The notes beneath the pieces are model-generated. The model did not search any database. It had not been told where the DNA came from and saw only the letters and a program-made list of their open reading frames with translations. Both the position numbers and the translations under genes were made by a program. Shown here piece after piece: positions 1 through 8,977 of a DNA stretch of 8,977 bases. Within the stretch, counting starts at the first letter, position 1. Every line of letters starts with the position of its first letter. This DNA is from a virus (taxonomy: Duplodnaviria > Heunggongvirae > Uroviricota > Caudoviricetes), in the IMG/VR virus record IMGVR_UViG_2547132488_000020. One strand, 5' to 3'.

Positions 1-16
1 AAGATGTGTAAATATT

Positions 17-62
17 GATTACGCCGGATTATGCCGGGTTATTTGCAAGTATTCAGGGTTAT
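17..62 (+). promoter_or_regulatory. Phased 10-bp direct-repeat element, copy A, upstream of the structural operon
   Basis: Hexamers GATTAC (17-22), GATTAT (27-32), GGTTAT (37-42), weaker AAGTAT (47-52) and GGTTAT (57-62) recur at exactly 10-bp spacing. Positions 17-42 match 4897-4922 at 23 of 26 bases. Role as a protein-binding site is inferred. Confidence 0.4.
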
Positions 63-177
63 AAGTTACTGATTTTACATTAAAAAGCTCACATTGTGGC
101 TATTGTGTTCGGCCTGGTTACTGTATATCTTTAAGTCATTCCAGACGATTTATTGCACAACAACCGGAGCATTTTTA

Positions 178-1062
178 ATGAACGTTTTATCTCAACTTAT
201 CAACGACGCGTTGAACCACCAGGGCGGCCATGTTCGCACTGATGGCAACGGTGATATTACTCAATTTATCCCTATGGAACCGGCAGCAGTTCGCTACCTG
301 TCCATGAATGACGTGCTGACCCCGAAAGGCGGCAAGCAGACTACCTTCAACGCTGTTCTGGCTGAACGTTCGCTGGTGGCACAGGCAGGCGCTGAAATCA
401 TCCGCATTCCTGGCCCGATGACCACGCAACCGACCGGCCAGACTGGTGCAACGACTGGCCGCGAAGTGGCTGACCGCTTCGTTGTCATCCGCCCTGGTGC
501 GTTCGCCAAAGTGGCTGACGGCGAAGAAATCAGCATGAGCGGCAAGCCGTACATGGTTGCAGCATTCGACCACAACACCGCACCGGCTTACGGCGTTGGC
601 TACACCCTGACCCGCCAGCAACTGAAACACGAATTCGCTGACGATACAGTGCTGGAAGCGGTCAACACCGCCATTGAACGCGGCATTGCCGATCTGGCTG
701 ACTTCGTGCTGCTGAACCACCTGGAAACCGCAGCGGAAACGCTGGCCAGCCCGTCATTCACCGCAGTGGCGCAGAAGATTGCAGCCAAAAACCTGCGCTT
801 TGATGAAGTTAAAGCCATTGTTGGCGGTGATTGCACCGGCCTGGAACTGCAAGACGGCGTTCTGCGCGCCTACGGTGTACGCGCTGAAATCAGCGGCCAG
901 ACTTCCAGCACAATCATTGGCGCTTTCGGCAATGCAGCCGTTGCCCTGGATGATGAAATTCGCGTCACCGCCAGACGCGTGCTGAATGGTGCGGTTGAAG
1001 TGGTGGTTTGGGTGAACGCATCCGCACTGGTGCCTGACTCAACTATGTTCTGGAAGGCTTGA
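178..1062 (+). CDS. Putative virion structural protein, possibly HK97-fold major capsid-like (294 aa); function unverified
   Basis: Long ORF with ATG at 178 preceded by GGAG (166-169) at 8-nt spacing. The 94-177 extension in the ORF track starts at TTG and reads as hydrophobic noise. Gly/Ala/Thr/Val-rich, acidic composition with a C-terminal segment IIGAFGNAAVALDDEIRV that resembles the conserved C-terminal strand of HK97-family capsid proteins (recalled from memory, not searched). First gene of an operon ending in a tape-measure gene. Confidence 0.6.
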   Translation: MNVLSQLINDALNHQGGHVRTDGNGDITQFIPMEPAAVRYLSMNDVLTPKGGKQTTFNAVLAERSLVAQAGAEIIRIPGPMTTQPTGQTGATTGREVADRFVVIRPGAFAKVADGEEISMSGKPYMVAAFDHNTAPAYGVGYTLTRQQLKHEFADDTVLEAVNTAIERGIADLADFVLLNHLETAAETLASPSFTAVAQKIAAKNLRFDEVKAIVGGDCTGLELQDGVLRAYGVRAEISGQTSSTIIGAFGNAAVALDDEIRVTARRVLNGAVEVVVWVNASALVPDSTMFWKA

Positions 1063-1064
1063 TC

Positions 1065-1379
1065 ATGTGGTGGGGCAGCAAAAAAGCGGCAGCGGAGCGC
1101 GCTGCCCTGCCGGGTGAAATCCTGGCAGCTATCGAAGGTGTGGCCATGTATGTGCGCCACGGTGATGAAAACACACCGCGCATCGTAGTGCAGCCGGTTG
1201 GCTGGTCAGGATTCATCTACAGCGATGACGCTGCTGAAAAATGGATTCGCAAGGCTTACCCGGAGATTAAGCAGTACCAGATTGAACGCGCCGTGAATTA
1301 CCTCGCTTCCCTGGTGCGCAGTCACTACCGCGAGCAGCGCCCGAAACAGAAGCGCGAAAGCTGGATGAACAGGTACTAA
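1065..1379 (+). CDS. Hypothetical protein (104 aa)
   Basis: ATG at 1065 with GGAAGG (1053-1058) SD at 6-nt spacing, 2 nt after the upstream stop; stop TAA 1377-1379 lies 3 nt before the next start. No motif recognised. Confidence 0.55.
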   Translation: MWWGSKKAAAERAALPGEILAAIEGVAMYVRHGDENTPRIVVQPVGWSGFIYSDDAAEKWIRKAYPEIKQYQIERAVNYLASLVRSHYREQRPKQKRESWMNRY

Positions 1380-1382
1380 GCC

Positions 1383-1547
1383 ATGAAACGACAAGAAACA
1401 CGCCAGCACGTAACGGTACGCCTCGCCCCTGACCTGGTGCGCCAGGTCGAAAGAGAGCAAGCCAAACTGGAACGCAGAACAGGCATCCGCCCTTCACGCA
1501 GCCAGGTGATTGAAAAGTTTCTGAGTAGCGGGCTGAACGGCAAATAA
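1383..1547 (+). CDS. Ribbon-helix-helix (CopG/Arc/MetJ-like) DNA-binding protein (54 aa)
   Basis: Hand translation gives MKRQETRQHVTVRLAPDLVRQVEREQAKLERRTGIRPSRSQVIEKFLSSGLNGK. The pattern beta-strand VTVRL, helix PDLVRQVEREQAK, Gly turn, helix RSQVIEKFL is the classic RHH layout. AGGT SD 8 nt upstream. Below the ORF-track size cutoff. Confidence 0.6.
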   Translation: MKRQETRQHVTVRLAPDLVRQVEREQAKLERRTGIRPSRSQVIEKFLSSGLNGK

Positions 1548-1761
1548 TGGCCAAGAATACAGGTTTCACCGGTTCCCTGTGCCCAAAATAACCGGCCAAA
1601 TTTAACCTTCATCGTTCCTCAGACGATGGATGCTGGAACCAGGTTGGTGGTCATCCTGGACGGTCAAAACCACCACTAATTCCACACCGGTTGCGCCGCA
1701 CCGGTCACCTAAAAGCGCGCACTCACTTAATCATCAACAACTATTGTTAGCGGCCAATACT

Positions 1762-2079
1762 ATGAAAAACCATGACCTGTACGAATCAATGAAAGAAGAA
1801 GCGCGTTTGATCCTTAGCGAAACAAAGCGTTTCCAAACCATTTCAGAGAAAAACCCAATCAGCTACGAAGCAGCCGACCTGCTGGCCAGCCTTCGCAACC
1901 GTTTAAACGCATTCGAACACATGACCGATGAAGCCGGTCGCGCCATGCGCAACGAAGCGGAAAGCCACGCATCGACCCTGGAACGCAAGAAGTGGCAACC
2001 ATCCAGCCGCATCAGTTCCGGTGAACGGGCCAAGCGCCAGGCAGTGAAGCGCGGCGCTATCCTGGTGCGGAGCGCATAA
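1762..2079 (+). CDS. Hypothetical helical, charged protein (105 aa; alternative start 1630 gives 149 aa)
   Basis: ORF in frame with 1630..2079. The N-terminal extension from 1630 is low-complexity and overlaps the CACCGGT motifs, so 1762 is preferred, but neither start has a good SD. Stop TAA 2077-2079 is 2 nt before the next ATG. Confidence 0.5.
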   Translation: MKNHDLYESMKEEARLILSETKRFQTISEKNPISYEAADLLASLRNRLNAFEHMTDEAGRAMRNEAESHASTLERKKWQPSSRISSGERAKRQAVKRGAILVRSA

Positions 2080-2081
2080 GA

Positions 2082-2291
2082 ATGGCAACCAACAACAACA
2101 TTTATGAAGCCGTTCTGAACGTCATCGGCGTAGCCGACAAGATGACGAAGAACAACGCAAGCCAACTGACCGACGCACAAAAGTTGGCGATCAAGAACCT
2201 TAGCGGCGCGATGAAGTCCTGGAAAGGTATCACGTTTGGGATGCGCGACATCACCGCCAACGACAAACCAACAGAAAGCAAAACCGCATAA
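2082..2291 (+). CDS. Hypothetical small protein (69 aa)
   Basis: ATG 2082 tightly following the upstream stop, with GGAG 2066-2069 upstream. Position just before the tape-measure gene is where tail assembly chaperones usually sit, but no sequence evidence supports that role. Confidence 0.5.
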   Translation: MATNNNIYEAVLNVIGVADKMTKNNASQLTDAQKLAIKNLSGAMKSWKGITFGMRDITANDKPTESKTA

Positions 2292-2300
2292 GGGGGCACC

Positions 2301-2507
2301 ATGCTGGACCGTATTCACACAAAACCGGAAGGAACAAACCCCTGGCCTGAACTGGTGGATATGGTCCTGCCCAAAGTTATGGTTTGCGAAACAGCGGAGG
2401 GAATGCAGGCACAGCGTAAACATCGCACCGAATGCGCCCTGCAACTGGCTGCTGCCGCCCTGCGGGCTGCTGGTGAACACACCCTGGCAGAAAATCTACT
2501 TAATTAA
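2301..2507 (+). CDS. Hypothetical small protein (68 aa)
   Basis: ATG 2301 preceded by a strong AGGGGG SD (2291-2296). Same reading frame as 2082..2291, separated only by TAA plus 9 nt. Confidence 0.5.
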   Translation: MLDRIHTKPEGTNPWPELVDMVLPKVMVCETAEGMQAQRKHRTECALQLAAAALRAAGEHTLAENLLN

Positions 2508-2528
2508 TTCTTTCAGAGACAAATTATT

Positions 2529-4820
2529 ATGGCCAATAAGAAGTTGAACGCCACAATCACCATCGGGGGTGCCGTTTCCGGCAGCCTCCGCGGTGCTTTT
2601 GGTACGGTGGAGAAATCCACCATCAAGATTGGCGCAGCGATTAAGCACATGTCGCGCGAACAGCGCCAGCTTAACGACGCTATGAAGCGTTATGGGCAAA
2701 ACTCCACGATGGTTGACCGCCTGCGCGGTCGTTACGAAAACATCGTAGGCCAGGTGGAACGCCTGCGGGCTGCGCAAGAGCGTTTAAACAGAGTGCAACG
2801 CGCCAGCACGGAAAACCTGGCCAAGCAGGCACAGCTACGCGGGCAGATTATCGATACCGTTATGGCTGGTGCTGCCGTTGCCGCACCTATCAAGATTGCC
2901 GCAGATCGTGAACAGCACGCCATTGGCATTGCCAAACAACTGGACGGCGCACGCGATGCAGCGGGCAACCTGACGGCGAAGTTTTGGGAAATGCGCAAGG
3001 CCGTTGCTGACCTTGGGCACGAAATTCCACTGGCCACAAACGACCTGTTTGACATGGCCACAGCAGGGCTGCGCATGGGCGTAGCTGGCGACCAAATCCT
3101 GGGGTTCACCCGGAACGTGGCCAAACTGGCCAGCGCCTTGGAACTGAACCCGGAAGAAGTCGCAGACAATATGGGCAAAATCCAGAATGTTTATCGACTT
3201 ACTCAAGCTGAGCTTGTGCGCCTTGGTGATGCTATTAATTACCTGGACGACCAAAACACCGTTAAAGGCGGTGAGCTTATCGACTTCCTACAGCGTGTTG
3301 GTGGTTCCGCCTCCCTCGCCAAACTCACTGCCAACGATATGGCAGCAATCGGCACCACGCTGATTTCTATGGGTGAAAGCGCAGACACTGCCGCAACGTC
3401 AGTGAAGGCGCTTGTTTCCAAGATGACGCTGGGCAGCAAATCCACGAAATCTGCGCGCGAAGCGTTCAAGGAATTGGGTTATTCCGCGCAGGAAGTGGCG
3501 AAATCCATGCAACTGGATAGCGTCAAGACCATCGAAAACTTTATGAAGACGGTCAACAAGCTGCCAGATTACAAGAAATCCGGCATCCTGGTGTCCATCT
3601 TCGGGCAGGAACACGTTGGTTCTATCTCCAAACTGGCAGCCAACATGGACAAGTTTGGCGAGGCGTTGCACCAGGCTAATGGCGAAATGTCCAAAGGCAG
3701 TGTGCAGAAGGAATTCCAGAACACCGTCAACACCACCAACGCGCAGATGGTTATCCTGCGTAACCGCACCGCTGACGTGGCTGACAATATCGGCACCGTC
3801 CTGCTGCCGACCGTCAACGACGCAGCCAAAGGCATTGGCCGCATCACAACTGTTGTGGCGAACTTCGCGGCGGAACACCCCGGCCTGACCAAAGCCGTGG
3901 TGGGCACAGCGATGGCGCTCACGTCCCTGCGTGTGGCCACCCTGGCGGCGCAGTTCGGCTTCACGTTCCTGAAAGGTGGCGTGTTGCAGATGTCCAGCCT
4001 GTTTGCCCGCATGAACGCATCTGCCGTTCTGGCCAGCACCCGTGGCCTGCCTGCGGTGGCTACCGGCATTCGTGCCGTTGGTGCGGCGTTCATATCCACT
4101 GGCGTGGGTGCTGCCGTAGCTGGCCTGGCGCTGGCAGGTTATCAGATTTACCGCCATTGGGCCGGTGTGAAGGCTTTTTTTGGTGGCGTTGGTGAAGGCA
4201 TCAAATCCGGGTTGGAACCGCTTAGCGATGCCCTGCATCGCCTGTATGAGCGCATGGGGCCATTGAAGCCCGTCATTGATGGCGTGGGCGCTGCGGTTAA
4301 GACGGTTTTCAACTGGTTCACGTCACTGACCGAACCGGTCAAATACAGCGGCGAGGAACTGGATAAGGCCGGTAAAATGGGGATGACGTTCGGTAAGACC
4401 CTGGCGGCTGGCATCGAGCTTGTGACCGCACCGATCACGTTCCTGATTGATAAGATTCTGTGGGTGTCTGACAACATCGGCAACCTGACCAACAAGGCAC
4501 TGGAGTTTAAAAACGCCGTGTCTGATGTTGCTGGTGGTGCGTGGCAGAAAACCAAAGATTTCTTTAGCAATCCGTTCGGTGAAGACGAAAGCAGCCAGCC
4601 AGCAGCGACCGCCGCCCCTGGTGCGTCCTTGCCTTCACCGGCACTGGCTAACCGCACCGGCAACACAACGGTGAACACGAACGACCAGTACACCATCAAC
4701 GTGAAGGCCGAGCCTGGCATGAATGAAGATGCGCTGGCAAATAAGGTGGCGCAGAAGCTGAAACAGCAGCAAGGAATCCGAAATCGTAGCATGATGAATG
4801 ACGGATTAGCAGCACCGTAA
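2529..4820 (+). CDS. Phage tail tape-measure protein-like (763 aa)
   Basis: Uninterrupted 2292-nt ORF. N-terminal Arg/Gln/Glu/Ala-rich helical region; a core (approx. aa 150-330) reading ATNDLFDMATAGLRMGVAGDQILGFTRNVAKLASALELNPEEVADNMGKI ... IGTTLISMGESADTAATSVKALVSKMTLGS that matches my memory of the TP901-family tape-measure core; a long Gly/Ala-rich hydrophobic segment (approx. aa 450-560). Size and layout are typical of TMPs. Not verified by search. Confidence 0.75.
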   Translation: MANKKLNATITIGGAVSGSLRGAFGTVEKSTIKIGAAIKHMSREQRQLNDAMKRYGQNSTMVDRLRGRYENIVGQVERLRAAQERLNRVQRASTENLAKQAQLRGQIIDTVMAGAAVAAPIKIAADREQHAIGIAKQLDGARDAAGNLTAKFWEMRKAVADLGHEIPLATNDLFDMATAGLRMGVAGDQILGFTRNVAKLASALELNPEEVADNMGKIQNVYRLTQAELVRLGDAINYLDDQNTVKGGELIDFLQRVGGSASLAKLTANDMAAIGTTLISMGESADTAATSVKALVSKMTLGSKSTKSAREAFKELGYSAQEVAKSMQLDSVKTIENFMKTVNKLPDYKKSGILVSIFGQEHVGSISKLAANMDKFGEALHQANGEMSKGSVQKEFQNTVNTTNAQMVILRNRTADVADNIGTVLLPTVNDAAKGIGRITTVVANFAAEHPGLTKAVVGTAMALTSLRVATLAAQFGFTFLKGGVLQMSSLFARMNASAVLASTRGLPAVATGIRAVGAAFISTGVGAAVAGLALAGYQIYRHWAGVKAFFGGVGEGIKSGLEPLSDALHRLYERMGPLKPVIDGVGAAVKTVFNWFTSLTEPVKYSGEELDKAGKMGMTFGKTLAAGIELVTAPITFLIDKILWVSDNIGNLTNKALEFKNAVSDVAGGAWQKTKDFFSNPFGEDESSQPAATAAPGASLPSPALANRTGNTTVNTNDQYTINVKAEPGMNEDALANKVAQKLKQQQGIRNRSMMNDGLAAP

Positions 4821-4845
4821 TGAAATGAAATTGATGACTGCAACC

Positions 4846-4877
4846 AAAGCCTGGGTGAAAACTCTGGCTTTTTTTTA
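4846..4877 (+). terminator. Intrinsic terminator after the tape-measure gene
   Basis: Hairpin 4846-4856 pairing with 4861-4871 (about 11 bp, one mismatch, one GU) around a GAAA tetraloop, followed by T8 (4869-4876). Confidence 0.6.
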
Positions 4878-4896
4878 TGGTTAGCATTTATTAACC

Positions 4897-4922
4897 GATT
4901 ATGCCGGATTATGTGGGGTTAT
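4897..4922 (+). promoter_or_regulatory. Phased 10-bp direct-repeat element, copy B, upstream of the replication operon
   Basis: GATTATGCCGGATTATGTGGGGTTAT; 23 of 26 bases identical to 17-42, with GATTAT, GATTAT, GGTTAT at 10-bp phasing. Confidence 0.4.
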
Positions 4923-4992
4923 GAGTGACATTTACCTTTTTAAATGCCTGAAATTATTTATGAATTTTCGGCCTATATTTTGGCAAAATAGC

Positions 4993-5020
4993 TTGCAGAA
5001 ACCGGATTGCAGGGTATCAT
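4993..5020 (+). promoter_or_regulatory. Candidate sigma70-type promoter for the replication operon
   Basis: TTGCAG (4993-4998), 16-bp spacer, TATCAT (5015-5020); predicted start near 5027. Sequence match only. Confidence 0.35.
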
Positions 5021-5025
5021 TTGAA

Positions 5026-5050
5026 TTGTGGCGCTTGCACACCGCCACAA
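5026..5050. promoter_or_regulatory. Perfect inverted repeat TTGTGGCG-N9-CGCCACAA (operator-like or RNA hairpin)
   Basis: 8-bp perfect arms 5026-5033 and 5043-5050 with a 9-bp spacer, sitting at the predicted start site of the 4993-5020 promoter. Confidence 0.35.
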
Positions 5051-5051
5051 A

Positions 5052-5120
5052 AAGGAAAACCCCCGGACTGCGCGAACAATCCAGGGGGCTTAATGAAAGT
5101 CTAGGTTAGCGGCCTGACTA
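5052..5120 (-). ncRNA. Candidate small antisense RNA (about 65 nt) with its own promoter and intrinsic terminator
   Basis: On the minus strand: TTGCTA (plus 5150-5155), 17-bp spacer, TAGTAT (plus 5127-5132); no ATG in the transcribed stretch; GC-rich hairpin (plus 5060-5066 pairing with 5081-5088, one bulge) followed on the minus strand by UUUUCCUUUUU (plus 5049-5059). Ends are approximate. Confidence 0.3.
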
Positions 5121-5221
5121 GGAAAAATACTAGCAAAGACCTTTACCTTTAGCAAGTTAAACCCCCCTTCATTGAGCCACCGATTTTAGCGCAGCCTCAA
5201 CGAAATATTGAGGAATGCGAA

Positions 5222-5497
5222 ATGAAATTGCACGACCTGGCTGACGCCATCCTGAAAACCAGAACCGTTGAAACTCGCTGTGATGCTGCGTTCAAATTCG
5301 CTGACGCTATGCTGCGCAACGGTTCAAGCATCACCGACACAGCGGAAGCAACCTACCGCATTGTAATGCGCGGGAACAAAGCCTACCGCCTGAACAAAGA
5401 TGACGCCTGGCGCATCACTGCGCACGCCTACGCTGAACAACTGGCGGAACGCGAAGTGGCCACCGTCCTGGCGCAGATTGCCGGGGGTGCGAAATGA
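5222..5497 (+). CDS. Small hypothetical protein, first gene of the replication operon (91 aa)
   Basis: ATG 5222 with GAGGA SD (5210-5214) at 7-nt spacing; stop overlaps the next start as ATGA. Shares the motif [YF]x[LF]N[KR]xDAW and an AGGA[KA] C-terminus with the next ORF. Confidence 0.6.
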   Translation: MKLHDLADAILKTRTVETRCDAAFKFADAMLRNGSSITDTAEATYRIVMRGNKAYRLNKDDAWRITAHAYAEQLAEREVATVLAQIAGGAK

Positions 5498-5727
5498 GCA
5501 TCATCACCCTGCATCGCCTTATGCGCGAACCTGCTACCAGCCAGACGCACGCACAGTGCGTGGCCATCATGCAGGAACTGATTAAGCAGGCCATCCAGTC
5601 TGGCCGCCCGCTGCAATATTCCATCTACCTGGGGCACCTGGCAGAGCACACCCGCTTCCCGTTCAACCGCGTGGACGCCTGGCAAATGGCGCTGGATATG
5701 CAGCGCAAGGCAGGGGGTGCGGCATGA
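5494..5727 (+). CDS. Small hypothetical protein resembling the preceding ORF (77 aa)
   Basis: Start overlaps the upstream stop (ATGA at 5494-5497) and its stop overlaps the primase start (ATGA at 5724-5727). GGGGGTG SD-like sequence sits inside the upstream C-terminus. Confidence 0.6.
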   Translation: MSIITLHRLMREPATSQTHAQCVAIMQELIKQAIQSGRPLQYSIYLGHLAEHTRFPFNRVDAWQMALDMQRKAGGAA

Positions 5728-8012
5728 GTCTGGCACACGAAAAGTACGCCTGGACTGAACAGGACGCAGCCGAGGCGTTGACATTTATTGACCCTGATTG
5801 CGACCACGAAACCTGGACCCGCCTGGCGTTTGCGGTGAAGGCTGAATTTGGTGACGCTGGATTTGATGTCTGGAACGATTGGAGCAAACAGGGCCAGAAG
5901 TACGACAGCAAAGAAGCACGCCAGAAGTGGAAAAGCGCCAAGCGGCACGGCGGAGTAACCATCGGCACGCTGATTGACCTTTCCATGCAGAACGGCTGGA
6001 AGCCGGGCACCAGGAAAGAGCTTTCAATAGACGAGATTCAGGCTCGCGCCGCGAAGCGTGAGGCCGAAGCTAAAGCCGAGGCAGAGCGCAAGCGCCACGA
6101 CCAGGCAGCAGCGGCAGCCCGCGCCCTGGAAATATGGGAAGCATCGGAACCGCTGGAAGGTAACGAACACCCGTATTTGCAGCGCAAAGGTGTGCTGTCT
6201 TTCGGCCTGAACGTTGGCCGCTGGAAGGGATACGAAAATGCACTGCTGGTGCCAATCCGCAACGCTGATGGTTCCCTAACCAGCTTGCAGGCAATCTTCC
6301 CGAACACCAACACTGACCTGGGCCGTGACCGTGACTACCTGAAAGACGGCCAGAAGCACGGTTGTTTCCACCTGATTGGCGGTAAGCCTGTTGGCGAAAA
6401 GCCGGTGATTGTGGTTTGCGAGGGTTACGCCACTGGTGCCAGCATCCACCAGGCAACAGGCCATTACGTGGCCGTGGCTTTCGACAGGAGCAACCTTAAA
6501 GCTGTGGCGCAGGCCATGCGCAAGATGGTTGGCCGCGCCACAATAATTGTGGCCGCTGATAACGACCAGTGGGAGAAGGGCAACCCCGGAAAAACCGATG
6601 CAGGTAAGGCAGCGCAGGCGGTTGGCGGCCTGGTGGCTGTGCCTGAATTCGATGACCTGACCACGAAGCCGACCGACTTCAACGACCTGCATAAATTGCA
6701 GGGAATTGATGCCGTGCGCAGCCAGGTGCAGGCTGTTATTCCAGCACCGGAGGAAAAGCGGTTCCTGCCACTGGATTCTAATGTGGTGCCGTTTGACTTC
6801 CCCTACACGTCAGACAGGATGCAGCCGCTTAACAACTGGGAAAACCTTGATTGGCTGTTAAGTCAGTACGGCATTACCGCTCGTTACAACGAGATCAGCA
6901 AGGAAGTTGAAATCAACGTGCCTGGTAAAAGCTATGGCGGTGACGGTGATGACGATAGCGCGCTGATTGAAGTGACCAGCCTGTGCGCCCGTAACCGGAT
7001 GCCAAAAGCTGACGTGGCTGACTACATCAAACTGATTGGCAAAGAGAACCGTTACAACCCGGTCAAAGACTTCATTCTGTCCAGGCCGTGGGATGGTTGC
7101 AGCCGGTTTGCTGACCTGTTAGCCACCATTGAAACGCCAGCAGATTACAGCCGTGACCTGATGGCGCTACTGATGAAACGCTGGCTGGTGTCGGCAGTGG
7201 CGGCGACATTTGAGGAACGCGGGTTCTGGTCCAAAGGCATCCTGGTGTTCCAGGGGGAGCAATCCCTTGGGAAAACGTCATGGATTAAGGCGCTGCTGCC
7301 GGAGGAAGAACAGGAAAAGCTATTGCTGGTTGGTGCTGCGATGGACCCTAGCAACAAAGACAGCGTATCGCAGGCAATTGGCCGCTGGATTGTGGAGCTT
7401 GGCGAACTGGACACCACATTCCGCAAGTCTGACATATCGGACCTGAAAAACTTCATCAGCCGCCCACATGACGTGCTGCGCAAGCCGTATGATCGCCGTG
7501 AATCGAAGTATAAGCGCAGGACTGTGTTCTTCGCATCAGTGAACCCGAAACACTTCCTGCATGACGAAACCGGCAACGTGCGTTTCTGGACCATTCCGGT
7601 GACCGGGCTGAACTATAATCACGGCATCGACGTGCAGCAGTTATGGGCCGAAGTGCATCACTGGTACACGAAAGGCGAACGCTGGTGGCTGGAACGCGAG
7701 GAAGAACAGCGCCTGGAAGCGGTGAACGCTGACCACGCGCAGGTTGACCCGCTCGAGGAAATGATTTTAGCCCGCTTCCGCTGGGATGAAACCCGCATGG
7801 AGGTTTACACCGAAATGTCAGCCGCAGAAGTGCTGATAGCGATTGGCTACGACAAGCCAACCAAATCGCAGGCCACATCATGCGGCAACATCCTGCGCAA
7901 GCTGACTGGCAAGGAGCCGCGCAGAACAGCCAAAGGGCGGTTCTACCCGATACCGCCAAAAGAATTACCAAAGCCACAAAGCTATTACGACGAAACCCAA
8001 GGCCCATTTTGA
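5724..8012 (+). CDS. Replicative primase-helicase, P4 alpha-type (Toprim primase plus P-loop NTPase; 762 aa)
   Basis: Toprim motifs VVCEGYATG (Glu233, nt 6417-6425) and AADNDQW (Asp279/Asp281, nt 6558-6566); Walker A GEQSLGKTS (aa 511-519, nt 7254-7280); Walker B-like IVELGELD; Trp-rich N-terminal domain ending GVTIGTLIDL. Architecture matches the phage/plasmid primase P4 family from memory. Confidence 0.9.
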   Translation: MSLAHEKYAWTEQDAAEALTFIDPDCDHETWTRLAFAVKAEFGDAGFDVWNDWSKQGQKYDSKEARQKWKSAKRHGGVTIGTLIDLSMQNGWKPGTRKELSIDEIQARAAKREAEAKAEAERKRHDQAAAAARALEIWEASEPLEGNEHPYLQRKGVLSFGLNVGRWKGYENALLVPIRNADGSLTSLQAIFPNTNTDLGRDRDYLKDGQKHGCFHLIGGKPVGEKPVIVVCEGYATGASIHQATGHYVAVAFDRSNLKAVAQAMRKMVGRATIIVAADNDQWEKGNPGKTDAGKAAQAVGGLVAVPEFDDLTTKPTDFNDLHKLQGIDAVRSQVQAVIPAPEEKRFLPLDSNVVPFDFPYTSDRMQPLNNWENLDWLLSQYGITARYNEISKEVEINVPGKSYGGDGDDDSALIEVTSLCARNRMPKADVADYIKLIGKENRYNPVKDFILSRPWDGCSRFADLLATIETPADYSRDLMALLMKRWLVSAVAATFEERGFWSKGILVFQGEQSLGKTSWIKALLPEEEQEKLLLVGAAMDPSNKDSVSQAIGRWIVELGELDTTFRKSDISDLKNFISRPHDVLRKPYDRRESKYKRRTVFFASVNPKHFLHDETGNVRFWTIPVTGLNYNHGIDVQQLWAEVHHWYTKGERWWLEREEEQRLEAVNADHAQVDPLEEMILARFRWDETRMEVYTEMSAAEVLIAIGYDKPTKSQATSCGNILRKLTGKEPRRTAKGRFYPIPPKELPKPQSYYDETQGPF

Positions 8013-8022
8013 GGAATAAATC

Positions 8023-8250
8023 ATGAGTTATCGCGCGATCATCAGTACATTTGACCCTGAAAACGCATCAACTGTTAACACTGAATTATTCCAGACCTTC
8101 GCAACCGCACCAGAAGCGGAAGCACATGGACGGAAATCACTTGCAGAGATTCAGCAGGAATTCTTCCAGATGGGTTATGCGTTCATCGTCAGCTACTTCA
8201 TCGTTGAAGTACCAGCGGCGGAAATCATCCAGTTTATTGCCCGCACGTAA
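8023..8250 (+). CDS. Hypothetical small protein (75 aa) at the end of the replication operon
   Basis: ATG 8023 with GAGGA SD 7 nt upstream, 10 nt after the primase stop; followed by a terminator. No motif recognised. Confidence 0.55.
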   Translation: MSYRAIISTFDPENASTVNTELFQTFATAPEAEAHGRKSLAEIQQEFFQMGYAFIVSYFIVEVPAAEIIQFIART

Positions 8251-8273
8251 CATCACAACAATTGTTGTTCACC

Positions 8274-8300
8274 GCCCTGGCACCTGCCGGGGCTTTTTTA
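8274..8300 (+). terminator. Intrinsic terminator closing the replication operon
   Basis: Stem 8274-8281 pairing with 8286-8293 (8 bp including one GU), 4-nt loop, then T6 (8294-8299). Confidence 0.6.
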
Positions 8301-8311
8301 TTGTCTGGCTG

Positions 8312-8572
8312 TGACACCTAGGTGTCATCCTGTCTTAAGGTGTCACAGTCGTAAGTGTCTGTTTTTGCTTATTAATGACACCTATGACACCTATGACACC
8401 TATTTTGAAAGATTTATTAGACCGTAAAAAACCGCCGCGAAATAACGGTTACCCTTTTTTTGAAAACAGGTGTCAAGGTGTCACTACCAACCCATGCAAT
8501 CAGCATAAATCGCATATGAATCATGCACTTATGTGTGTGACACCTATGGTGACACCTCAACCCAAGGTGTCA
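8312..8572. repeat. Iteron array: 11 copies of heptamer TGACACC/GGTGTCA flanking an AT-rich stretch; putative replication origin
   Basis: Forward copies at 8312, 8376, 8385, 8394, 8538, 8550; reverse copies at 8321, 8339, 8469, 8477, 8566. Includes a perfect 16-bp palindrome (8312-8327) and three tandem TGACACCTA 9-mers (8376-8402). AT-rich segment 8401-8466 with A6 and T7 runs. Confidence 0.7.
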
Positions 8573-8977
8573 TTCTTTCAGGGCATAGCTGCGCACCGTT
8601 ATGGCGTTATGAATCCACTCATTTGTAACAACGCTTTTTCACATCTAACCAAAGCGGCAGCCGGAATAGGTACAACATACAGAAGTATGATGTAACTACA
8701 GGAAACGAGCCTTTCAGCCTTGTTTTGCGTTCAAACAGTAGCTGCTCAGTAAACAGCCAGAACGTTGCACATATCGCAACAATAAGCCTGTGTGAATACG
8801 GGCTGAAAGCGCGCGGAATATGTCAGATTATGCGCCGTTCGCCTGCCAGCACCTTCCTGGTGCTTCTTTCTGCCTGCAAACCCACCATATTTAACATAAT
8901 GGACCTTGCGCGCACCGACTGGACGCCTGCCTGCCTCAAAAATCGAAGGTACTTCCGAGGGGGCACAGCCTGCGGGG

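Follow-up and report, generated by a model that had tools for sequence, protein, structure and literature searches.

A 9.1-kb circular element with a capsid gene and a tape measure gene: a probable cos-type satellite of Jilinvirus-like phages in enterobacteria

Background

The window studied here, a stretch of 8,977 nucleotides recorded as a tailed virus of the class Caudoviricetes (IMG/VR record IMGVR_UViG_2547132488_000020), contains a replication operon with a primase-helicase gene and, separately, an operon in which a capsid-like gene and a gene for a tape measure protein (TMP) are accompanied by small genes. What kind of element combines one head gene and one tail gene with its own replication genes, and on which phage would it depend? 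In the present study, we conclude, at a probability of about 0.7, that the window is a nearly complete 9.14-kb circular, integrase-less satellite of the cos type, that its helper is a Jilinvirus-like myophage of the Iiscvirinae, and that it is related to the phage-inducible chromosomal islands (PICIs) integrated at the fis gene.

An initial annotation, made by a model from the letters of the window alone, had described a P4-type replication module joined to a minimal structural module and had proposed a satellite-like element matching no known family. All the features that it listed are present, including 11 open reading frames (ORFs) in two operons (Table 1). We examined the complete form of the element, the origin of its genes, its relatives, and the explanations that compete with a satellite life cycle.

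Results and Discussion

The window is nearly all of a circular replicon

The window aligned over its whole length (100% coverage, 98.7% identity) with the 9,138-bp circular plasmid pSCU-121-2 of E. coli, which carries the same 11 genes; only 161 bp of this circle lie outside the window. Similar plasmids of 8.9-9.3 kb were found in Salmonella, Proteus, and E. coli, and the plasmid hosts comprise E. coli, Salmonella, Proteus, and Enterobacter. The exact protein encoded by the first gene (O1) occurred in 61 blocks of the assembly collection, and the longest contig was 5-10 kb in 43 of them. The contigs examined had rotated break points and terminal k-mer overlaps, which correspond to circular units of 9.13-9.53 kb. 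One plasmid record of 17,382 bp (CP077066.1, L045) is a head-to-tail dimer of the element, which may be either a real multimer or an artefact of long-read assembly.

The 11 credible ORFs are all on the plus strand and fall into two blocks. The first (178-4820) contains O1 to O6 followed by the 763-aa TMP, and the second (5222-8250) contains two small ORFs, a 762-aa primase-helicase, and a 75-aa ORF. The 11 genes of the whole circle include none for a terminase, a portal, a sheath, a tube, a baseplate, or lysis, no integrase or AlpA gene is present in the window or in the entire 9,138-bp circle, and no ORF matched Sid, Psu, Delta, or epsilon in Pfam, PHROG, or NCBIfam. A megablast search of the whole window against phages gave no match. 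The initial annotation had noted that the terminase, portal, tube, lysis, Sid, Psu, and Delta genes were not visible, and this observation extends to the whole circle, since the window covers 8,977 of its 9,138 bp. The window is therefore not an internal piece of a conventional prophage, as the complete circle contains no other virion or lysis genes. A satellite-like element with a minimal structural module was correctly recognised, and its complete form is the 9.1-kb circle or, as described below, a 9.6-kb island at fis.

Three features point to one phage lineage

Three independent features, namely the TMP, the primase-helicase, and a 73-nt non-coding site, point by sequence comparison to one phage lineage, the Iiscvirinae. 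These helper candidates are small myoviruses (Jilinvirus ECOO78, ep3, ECO1230-10, HeidiAbel/Bas97, Salmonella PT1, Enterobacter Arya, Pseudomonas Persinger, and PPpW-3).

The TMP, which had been recognised as such, is full-length, belongs to the TP901 family, and matched PF10145 (E = 7.6e-38), TIGR01760 (E = 7e-67), and phrog_28 (E = 1.8e-105). Over its full length it is 44-47% identical to the TMPs of Bas97, ECOO78, ep3, Persinger, and PPpW-3 (42-47% across the Iiscvirinae phages), and its 763 aa compare with 695-785 aa in Iiscvirinae phages. Its gene lies in an unusual setting, with no gene for a sheath, a tube, or a recognised chaperone next to it. It is carried by plasmids and fis islands of E. 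coli, Salmonella, and Cronobacter, and by a 9.9-kb circular contig of Pseudomonas fluorescens with the same gene order. The satellite TMPs are 66-70% identical among the enterobacterial members, 43-48% identical to that of the Pseudomonas member, and 35-50% identical to phage TMPs. They are as distant from the phage TMPs as the TMPs of enterobacterial phages are from those of Pseudomonas phages, and they constitute a separate, old lineage. Conservation with phage TMPs is highest in the N-terminal 50 residues and in residues 501-700, a pattern that would fit continued compatibility with the chaperone and the baseplate hub of the helper.

The primase-helicase (O10) is 61% identical over its full length to gp51 of Bas97 and 58% identical to the primase of Persinger, with an identical domain architecture. 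The element replicates with this primase-helicase gene of its own, and the cognate iteron array lies downstream, where the initial annotation had placed an origin; the role of the array as the origin is putative. The GGTGTCA array co-varies with the type of the primase C-terminus: it is also present in L016 and in the integrated element L002, and it is absent from the helper phages and from the members with other primases. The ORFs that overlap the iteron arrays (8375-8695 on the plus strand of the window and 14414-14743 on the minus strand of L002; for example, MTPMTPMTPIL...) are artefacts produced by translating the repeats, and one of them is annotated as a RefSeq hypothetical protein. Of the two small genes before the primase gene, O9 is conserved across the family; neither O8 nor O9 gave a family match.

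The initial annotation had called this enzyme P4 alpha-type, which would make the element a P4-like satellite of P2-type phages. The layout is indeed analogous, with a primase-helicase followed by short repeats (alpha and crr in P4), and DUF5906-type primases occur in some family members. In a BLASTP comparison of P4 alpha with O10, only the Toprim region aligned (32% identity over 209 aa). P4 alpha consists of Zn_Ribbon_Prim, Toprim_3, D5_N, DUF5906, and Pox_D5 domains, whereas O10 has no Zn-ribbon, D5_N, or Pox_D5 domain and combines PriCT_2 and Toprim with VapE, as in Jilinvirus. The P4 resemblance thus holds for the Toprim domain and not for the rest of the protein. The P4 accessory proteins Sid, Psu, Delta, and epsilon have no homologues here, and the putative cos site and the TMP, like the primase, lead to Jilinvirus-like helpers and not to P2; the label "P4-type" is therefore dropped. 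The primase comparison refutes membership in the P4 family, and we regard this as the least credible of the explanations considered.

The third feature is the 73-nt non-coding stretch (634-706 of L001), which is 94.5% identical (97% over 65 nt) to positions 40927-40998 of Bas97, the gap between the spanin gene and the Nu1-like small terminase gene (terS). When it was compared with 50,697 phage records, only 11 of them matched, all in the Jilinvirus group, and in each the match fell between the lysis genes and terS. The cos site of lambda is found immediately upstream of Nu1, and Bas97 has a Nu1-like small terminase of the lambda type, a gpA large terminase, and a portal of the lambda family. 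The linear record of ECOO78 has GGGGCATTGGTCC at both ends, the record of Arya starts 4 nt upstream of GGGGCATTGGTCC, and the version of the site in a Serratia satellite matches the first 50 nt of the record of Serratia phage MQ-4. Because of its position, the lambda-type terminase, and these three record ends, we read the 73-nt stretch as a putative cos site.

Every family member examined has the same architecture at a distance of about 350 bp upstream of O1: GGTaCTTCC...CTGCG, 13 variable nt, and CGC...TGTGCGTG, with a lineage-specific core. Persinger has this architecture upstream of terS. The variant in Klebsiella had no match among sequenced phages. The element therefore has a putative packaging site of the helper and has no terminase, portal, or lysis gene, the combination that marks a cos-type satellite.

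The right end of the window (8969-8977) reads ...CAGCCTGCGGGG and falls 3 nt inside the 13-nt putative cohesive-end sequence GGGGCATTGGTCC; the circle resumes 161 bp further on. The chance of a contig end so near to one site in 9.1 kb is about 0.08%. Because such a coincidence is improbable, the source sample may have contained linear, cos-cut satellite DNA.

The capsid protein and the small proteins

O1 gave no match in Pfam (including PF05065) or PHROG. An AlphaFold2 model built with 28 homologues (pLDDT 75, pTM 0.73) matched solely HK97-fold capsid proteins and encapsulins in Foldseek (243 matches in PDB and 227 in BFVD at E<=1e-3), with a probability of 1.00 to many capsid structures. Among the matches were the capsid protein of EcCI2, a capsid-forming PICI (cf-PICI), and Ccm of SaPIbov5 (7rwz_C, TMq 0.47). 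In two distant homologues of O1 (P0097 and P0099), the capsid part is joined to an HK97 prohead protease (Peptidase_S78). O1, which had been called capsid-like, is thus by its predicted structure an HK97-fold capsid protein. That it might be a recent copy of the helper capsid gene was rejected, since hhalign gave a probability of 7.5%.

The remaining proteins of the first operon gave less. Nothing usable was obtained for the small ORFs in Pfam, PHROGs, NCBIfam, and PADLOC, and PDB sequence searches with O1, O2, and O3 returned only noise, including spurious ubiquitin matches for O3. The model of O2 (pLDDT 69, low-to-moderate confidence) had no fold match. O3 had been described as a ribbon-helix-helix (RHH) regulator; its sequence pattern is RHH-like, and the fold found no support in HMM or PDB searches. 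It may be a regulator that acts on the phased repeats described below. O4 may be a scaffold or a size factor. O5 and O6 (2082-2507) share a reading frame, with a stop codon and 9 nt between them, and L026 and L027 have a single gene between O4 and the TMP gene, which matches O6. The idea that O5 and O6 are tail assembly chaperones is unsupported, as neither a match to Phage_TAC_7 nor a tblastn match to the Jilinvirus chaperone was found. None of O1 to O6 had a detectable counterpart in the phage genomes compared.

Because O1 is a capsid protein of the HK97 fold and resembles that of EcCI2, one might suppose that the element makes complete heads by itself and steals only tails, as cf-PICIs do. 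Such an island would be expected to encode more of the head, and no portal, protease, head-tail connector, or terminase subunit occurs among the 11 genes of the circle. O2 and O4 to O6 are very unlikely to be cryptic portal or connector proteins because of their sizes (68-104 aa). Moreover, the circle carries a tail gene, the TMP gene, which cf-PICIs are not expected to need. We consider a capsid-forming island highly improbable.

Integrated relatives and the wider family

Of 5,426 complete E. coli chromosomes, 65 contain the region from O1 to the TMP gene (window positions 1-4732) at 91-97% identity, as the right half of an island of 9,573 bp. Both sides of this island are flanked by TTAGTTCATGCCGTATT, a perfect repeat of 17 bp that corresponds to the 3' end of fis. 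The order of the island is integrase, AlpA-like helix-turn-helix protein, small ORF, 562-aa VapE helicase, small ORF, cos, and O1 to TMP. The repeat is the reverse complement of the published att core of the fis PICIs, TACGGCATGAACTAA (Mageeney et al. 2023, PMC10111431), and the integrated relatives are the "fis PICIs" catalogued in that study. Gram-negative PICIs commonly carry a capsid gene in their "late zone" (PMC10111431). The statement that the content of the window matches no family was therefore only partly right: the integrated relatives are already catalogued, and the TMP, the plasmid form, and the link to Jilinvirus were not found in the literature.

We defined the family by homologues of O1. 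Its conserved core consists of O1, O2, O3, O4, and usually O6, in a gene order that is the same from E. coli to Pseudomonas. The replication modules are freely swapped (VapE, combinations of DUF5906 and PriCT_2, and AAA_25), and the O1 module recombines with at least 5 different replication or integration modules. In Serratia (L028 and L029) and Klebsiella (L030 and L031), the members are integrated at fis and have O1 to O4 and a cos of the same architecture, without a TMP gene. Some members carry additional genes: an AbiEi-like gene lies between O3 and O4 in L039-L041 and NZ_CP100673.1, and the Serratia island L028 has a SocA_Panacea gene. These are possibly defence or toxin-antitoxin cargo in a variable slot.

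A Salmonella island of 9.1 kb (L018 4672-13853; also L019 and L020) interrupts the gene for a protease-capsid fusion in a Jilinvirus-like prophage, whose terL and portal share 75% and 66% identity with their Bas97 counterparts; the insertion has an att duplication of 16 bp. Among the island's products are an integrase, an AAA_25 replicase, and a helper-like S78 protease fused to an O1-like capsid domain. It is an instance of the "helper-embedded PICI" configuration (PMC10111431). It disrupts the capsid gene of the helper and brings its own, and it physically ties the O1 capsid family to head assembly of the Jilinvirus type. A 521-aa protein of this island has a TMP-like N-terminus.

In metagenomes, contig L021 has a distant O1-like gene in an island with int, AlpA, and primase genes. 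This gene and an ORF of equal length (316 aa) lie on opposite strands (1382-2332, minus, and 9826-10776, plus), and the opposite-strand ORF, which is located upstream, may belong to a second, adjacent island. A 9,629-bp metagenome contig was considered as an excised circle and rejected; it is an integrated island with short chromosomal flanks.

The origin of the primase, the TMP, and the cos site in a Jilinvirus-like lineage would also suit a different history, in which the element is a decaying remnant, or a miniaturised defective phage of that lineage, surviving as a plasmid without adapted satellite biology. We compared nonsynonymous and synonymous substitution rates (dN/dS) and obtained 0.07-0.57 for all ORFs tested (O1, 0.23-0.35; O2, 0.19-0.27; O3, 0.16-0.21; O4, 0.07-0.48; O6, 0.14-0.16; TMP, 0.22-0.27). 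These ratios indicate that the ORFs are under purifying selection and thus that the element is not a decaying remnant. A mere remnant would not explain the gene order kept from E. coli to Pseudomonas, the exchange of replication and integration modules, the set O1 to O6 without phage counterparts, or the separate and old lineage of the TMPs. The remnant explanation has very little to recommend it.

Regulation

As the initial annotation had noted, the same phased repeat precedes both operons. The two copies of the GATTATGCCG repeat share 26 nt at 88% identity, and 5 matches were counted, against 0.01 expected; the repeat is conserved in Cronobacter and other family members. Read from the sequence, the two promoters have the same putative geometry, in which the third repeat unit overlaps the -35 position and, 17-18 nt further downstream, there is a hexamer resembling a -10 element (TATAAG, 60-65, in the first promoter and TTAAAT, about 4942, in the second). 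The repeat was considered as a sign of control by the late activator of the helper, and this was rejected, since the repeat does not occur in helper genomes. For the same reason, it would be an operator of the satellite itself, and O3 is the obvious candidate to bind it.

Conservation of the 300-nt leader that precedes the replication genes extends to the Pseudomonas member, and this leader contains a candidate antisense RNA on the minus strand. Its promoter elements (-35 TTGCTA at 5154-5149 and, after 17 nt, -10 TAGTAT at 5131-5126) coincide with invariant columns of the leader alignment, and a strong minus-strand terminator hairpin (5087-5060) is followed by a U-run. The fold has some compensatory pairs and a z-score of -2.3; no known RNA family was found in the window with Rfam. 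Control of copy number or immunity by such an RNA is plausible.

Table 1. Features of the 8,977-nt window (positions are those of the window; TMP, tape measure protein)
Feature	Position	Strand	Remarks
Phased repeat, copy 1	17..44	+	Three 10-bp GATTAYGCCG units; ahead of the morphogenetic operon
O1, predicted HK97-fold major capsid protein, 294 aa	178..1062	+	AlphaFold model and Foldseek; no protease or scaffold domain
O2, 104 aa, family core	1065..1379 (start 1059/1065)	+	In all family members, including Pseudomonas
O3, 54 aa, family core	1383..1547	+	RHH-like by sequence pattern; conserved
O4, about 104 aa, helical, family core	1765..2079 (start 1630/1765)	+	Conserved basic C-terminus, GERAKRQAVKRGAILVR
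O5, 69 aa	2082..2291	+	Variable and dispensable; poorly conserved; absent from the 8,929-bp variant L035
O6, 68 aa, conserved	2301..2507	+	Upstream of the TMP gene; kept in the Klebsiella island without TMP
O7, TMP, full-length, 763 aa	2529..4820	+	Iiscvirinae/Jilinvirus type; PF10145, TIGR01760, phrog_28
Phased repeat, copy 2	4897..4923	+	Ahead of the leader of the replication operon; conserved across the family
Candidate antisense RNA, about 68 nt	5050..5154	-	In the leader of the replication operon; -35, -10, terminator hairpin, U-run
O8 (91 aa) and O9 (77 aa)	5222-5497, 5494-5727	+	Before the primase gene; same arrangement in Jilinvirus genomes
O10, primase-helicase, 762 aa	5724..8012	+	PriCT_2, Toprim_3, VapE
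O11, 75 aa, conserved	8023..8250	+	Last gene of the replication operon; terminator at 8274-8299
Iteron array, putative replication origin	8312..8572		11 GGTGTCA in both orientations (1.24 expected)
Putative cos site, left part	8937..8977	+	Cut by the end of the window; the rest is in the missing 161 bp

A proposed life cycle and the points against it

We propose that the satellite would persist between infections either in plasmid form or integrated at fis. Both operons would be preceded by a common operator consisting of the phased repeats, to which O3 perhaps binds, and the antisense RNA may set the copy number. Infection by a Jilinvirus would switch on both operons, and the helper terminase would recognise the shared cos, cut the satellite DNA, and package it. 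O1, together with the portal and the protease of the helper, would build heads small enough to exclude the 41-kb helper genome, and O4, which is helical with a basic C-terminus, is a candidate scaffold. Taking a T=7 head with 41 kb as the reference and scaling the volume as T^(3/2), we estimate that a single 9.1-kb copy would occupy about 80% of a T=3 shell, or that a T=4 shell could hold two. The satellite TMP would then enter tails built by the helper.

In a bolder form of this scheme, a plasmid-resident satellite would wait for a largely virulent Jilinvirus and produce chimeric virions, in which the terminase, portal, sheath, tube, and baseplate of the helper are combined with a capsid and a TMP of the satellite. 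The TMP would be more than a passive copy and would confer a distinct property on satellite particles, such as a preference of tails for satellite heads, or another route or host factor for the ejection of DNA. We put this forward tentatively, as an outcome that is possible but doubtful. The satellite may have a TMP of its own to supply a limiting component, to divert tails to satellite heads, or to alter DNA ejection; all three are candidates. Whether the capsid gene is needed for transfer is uncertain, because PICI capsid genes are reported to be dispensable for transfer in model Gram-negative PICIs (PMC10111431).

Several points weigh against this explanation. Induction, packaging, and transfer of the element are predictions, and the cos site is assigned from homology, its position, and the ends of phage records; the genome announcement of Arya states that its DNA is circularly permuted (PMC5754474), and we found no paper that describes cohesive ends in Jilinvirus. 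No Jilinvirus-like prophage DNA was found in the 5,426 complete E. coli genomes, so co-occurrence cannot be shown and the helper would have to arrive by infection; the Jilinvirus-like phages of the BASEL collection are described as effectively virulent, with an enigmatic lifestyle (PMC11990801). The absence of the phased repeat from the helper genomes gives no hint of how the helper would switch on the satellite. The remoteness of O1 from the helper capsid protein leaves co-assembly with the helper portal and protease unproven. Finally, the TMP gene is absent from the Serratia and Klebsiella fis islands and is thus not essential to the life cycle of the family; for this reason, we regard it as an accessory of one subclade. 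The capsid gene belongs to the family core.

The dispensability of PICI capsid genes is also compatible with another role for the structural genes. The element could be an anti-phage plasmid that is not packaged, in which the homologues of the capsid protein and the TMP serve as decoys or poison subunits, derailing the assembly of Jilinvirus heads and tails and protecting the host population. Homologues of the TMP and the capsid protein could interfere with assembly, and defences against tail assembly encoded by PICIs or prophages are documented in two reports (PMC11364771, PMC10884400). Cargo that resembles defence genes occurs in relatives: L028 has SocA_Panacea, and L039 and H2 have AbiEi-like genes. 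Pure defence, however, gives no role to a helper-type cos that is conserved in every family member with lineage-matched variants, and the models of PADLOC matched none of the ten window proteins scanned. Since satellites usually both interfere and transfer, such a function overlaps with a packaged satellite instead of replacing it. We consider an unpackaged defence plasmid unlikely, if less so than the remnant and the capsid-forming island, and retain the cos-type satellite as the preferred explanation.

Comparison with known satellites

A PICI-like or cos-type satellite with captured late genes is a known kind of element. The fis PICIs are the closest: the O1-to-TMP module of the integrated relatives has about 96-97% DNA identity, these relatives are integrated at the fis 3' end with the published att core and have the order of int, AlpA, primase, and late zone, and the window's element likewise has a replication zone (primase and iterons) and then a late zone (capsid and TMP). 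It differs in that it is a circular plasmid without integrase or AlpA, and in that the helper and cos suggested for it are of the Jilinvirus type. The published helpers of the model Gram-negative PICIs are lambdoid. A further difference is the TMP itself; the term "tape measure" does not occur in the fis PICI study (PMC10111431).

P4 resembles the element in that it is plasmid-borne or integrated, is packaged at cos by the helper terminase, has a multidomain primase-helicase with a short-repeat ori/crr downstream, and has a genome about a quarter the size of that of its helper. The primase-helicase of the window's element belongs to another family, Sid, Psu, Delta, and epsilon are missing from it, and its helper is not P2; P4, in turn, encodes neither a capsid-fold protein nor a TMP. 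SaPIbov5 is also a cos satellite with an HK97-fold capsid homologue, Ccm, which redirects head size or shape; O1 has the same predicted fold. In contrast, SaPIbov5 has a Gram-positive host and no TMP, and Ccm and the capsid protein of its helper are close homologues, whereas O1 is remote from that of Jilinvirus. The cf-PICIs likewise have an HK97-fold capsid protein of their own, but they carry a complete head and packaging module, whereas the window's element has only a capsid protein and a tail gene.

The EPIPs of Mycolicibacterium, which we compared by their description, are small (11-kb) satellites with both a capsid protein and a TMP. They differ in their actinobacterial host and in having terS, adaptors, a scaffold protein, and a serine integrase; no EPIP-type terS, adaptor, or serine integrase was found among the 11 ORFs of the window. 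According to the EPIP preprint of December 2025 (bioRxiv 10.64898/2025.12.02.691453), TMPs are otherwise unreported in satellites, save for a TMP-like protein in PLE11, a Vibrio PLE. In the searchable literature, we found no description of a TMP in a Gram-negative satellite, of an integrase-less plasmid form, or of a link between such satellites and a Jilinvirus helper or cos.

Conclusions

Tail genes of satellites are almost unreported; what the known satellites do is to remodel heads or to redirect packaging. If a satellite that is widespread in enterobacteria has a selectively maintained, full-length TMP, this would extend hijacking to the core of the tail, and if chimeric virions with an active TMP are indeed formed, the element would be the first Gram-negative satellite that reprograms the inside of the tail of its helper. 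Our analysis names a concrete helper pairing, with the BASEL phage HeidiAbel/Bas97 and its relatives. It also indicates that late modules of the PICI type pass between islands that have an integrase and plasmids that lack one, with replicons that can be interchanged. The "cryptic, non-mobilizable" 9-kb plasmids of E. coli, Salmonella, and Proteus may be mobilised by phages.

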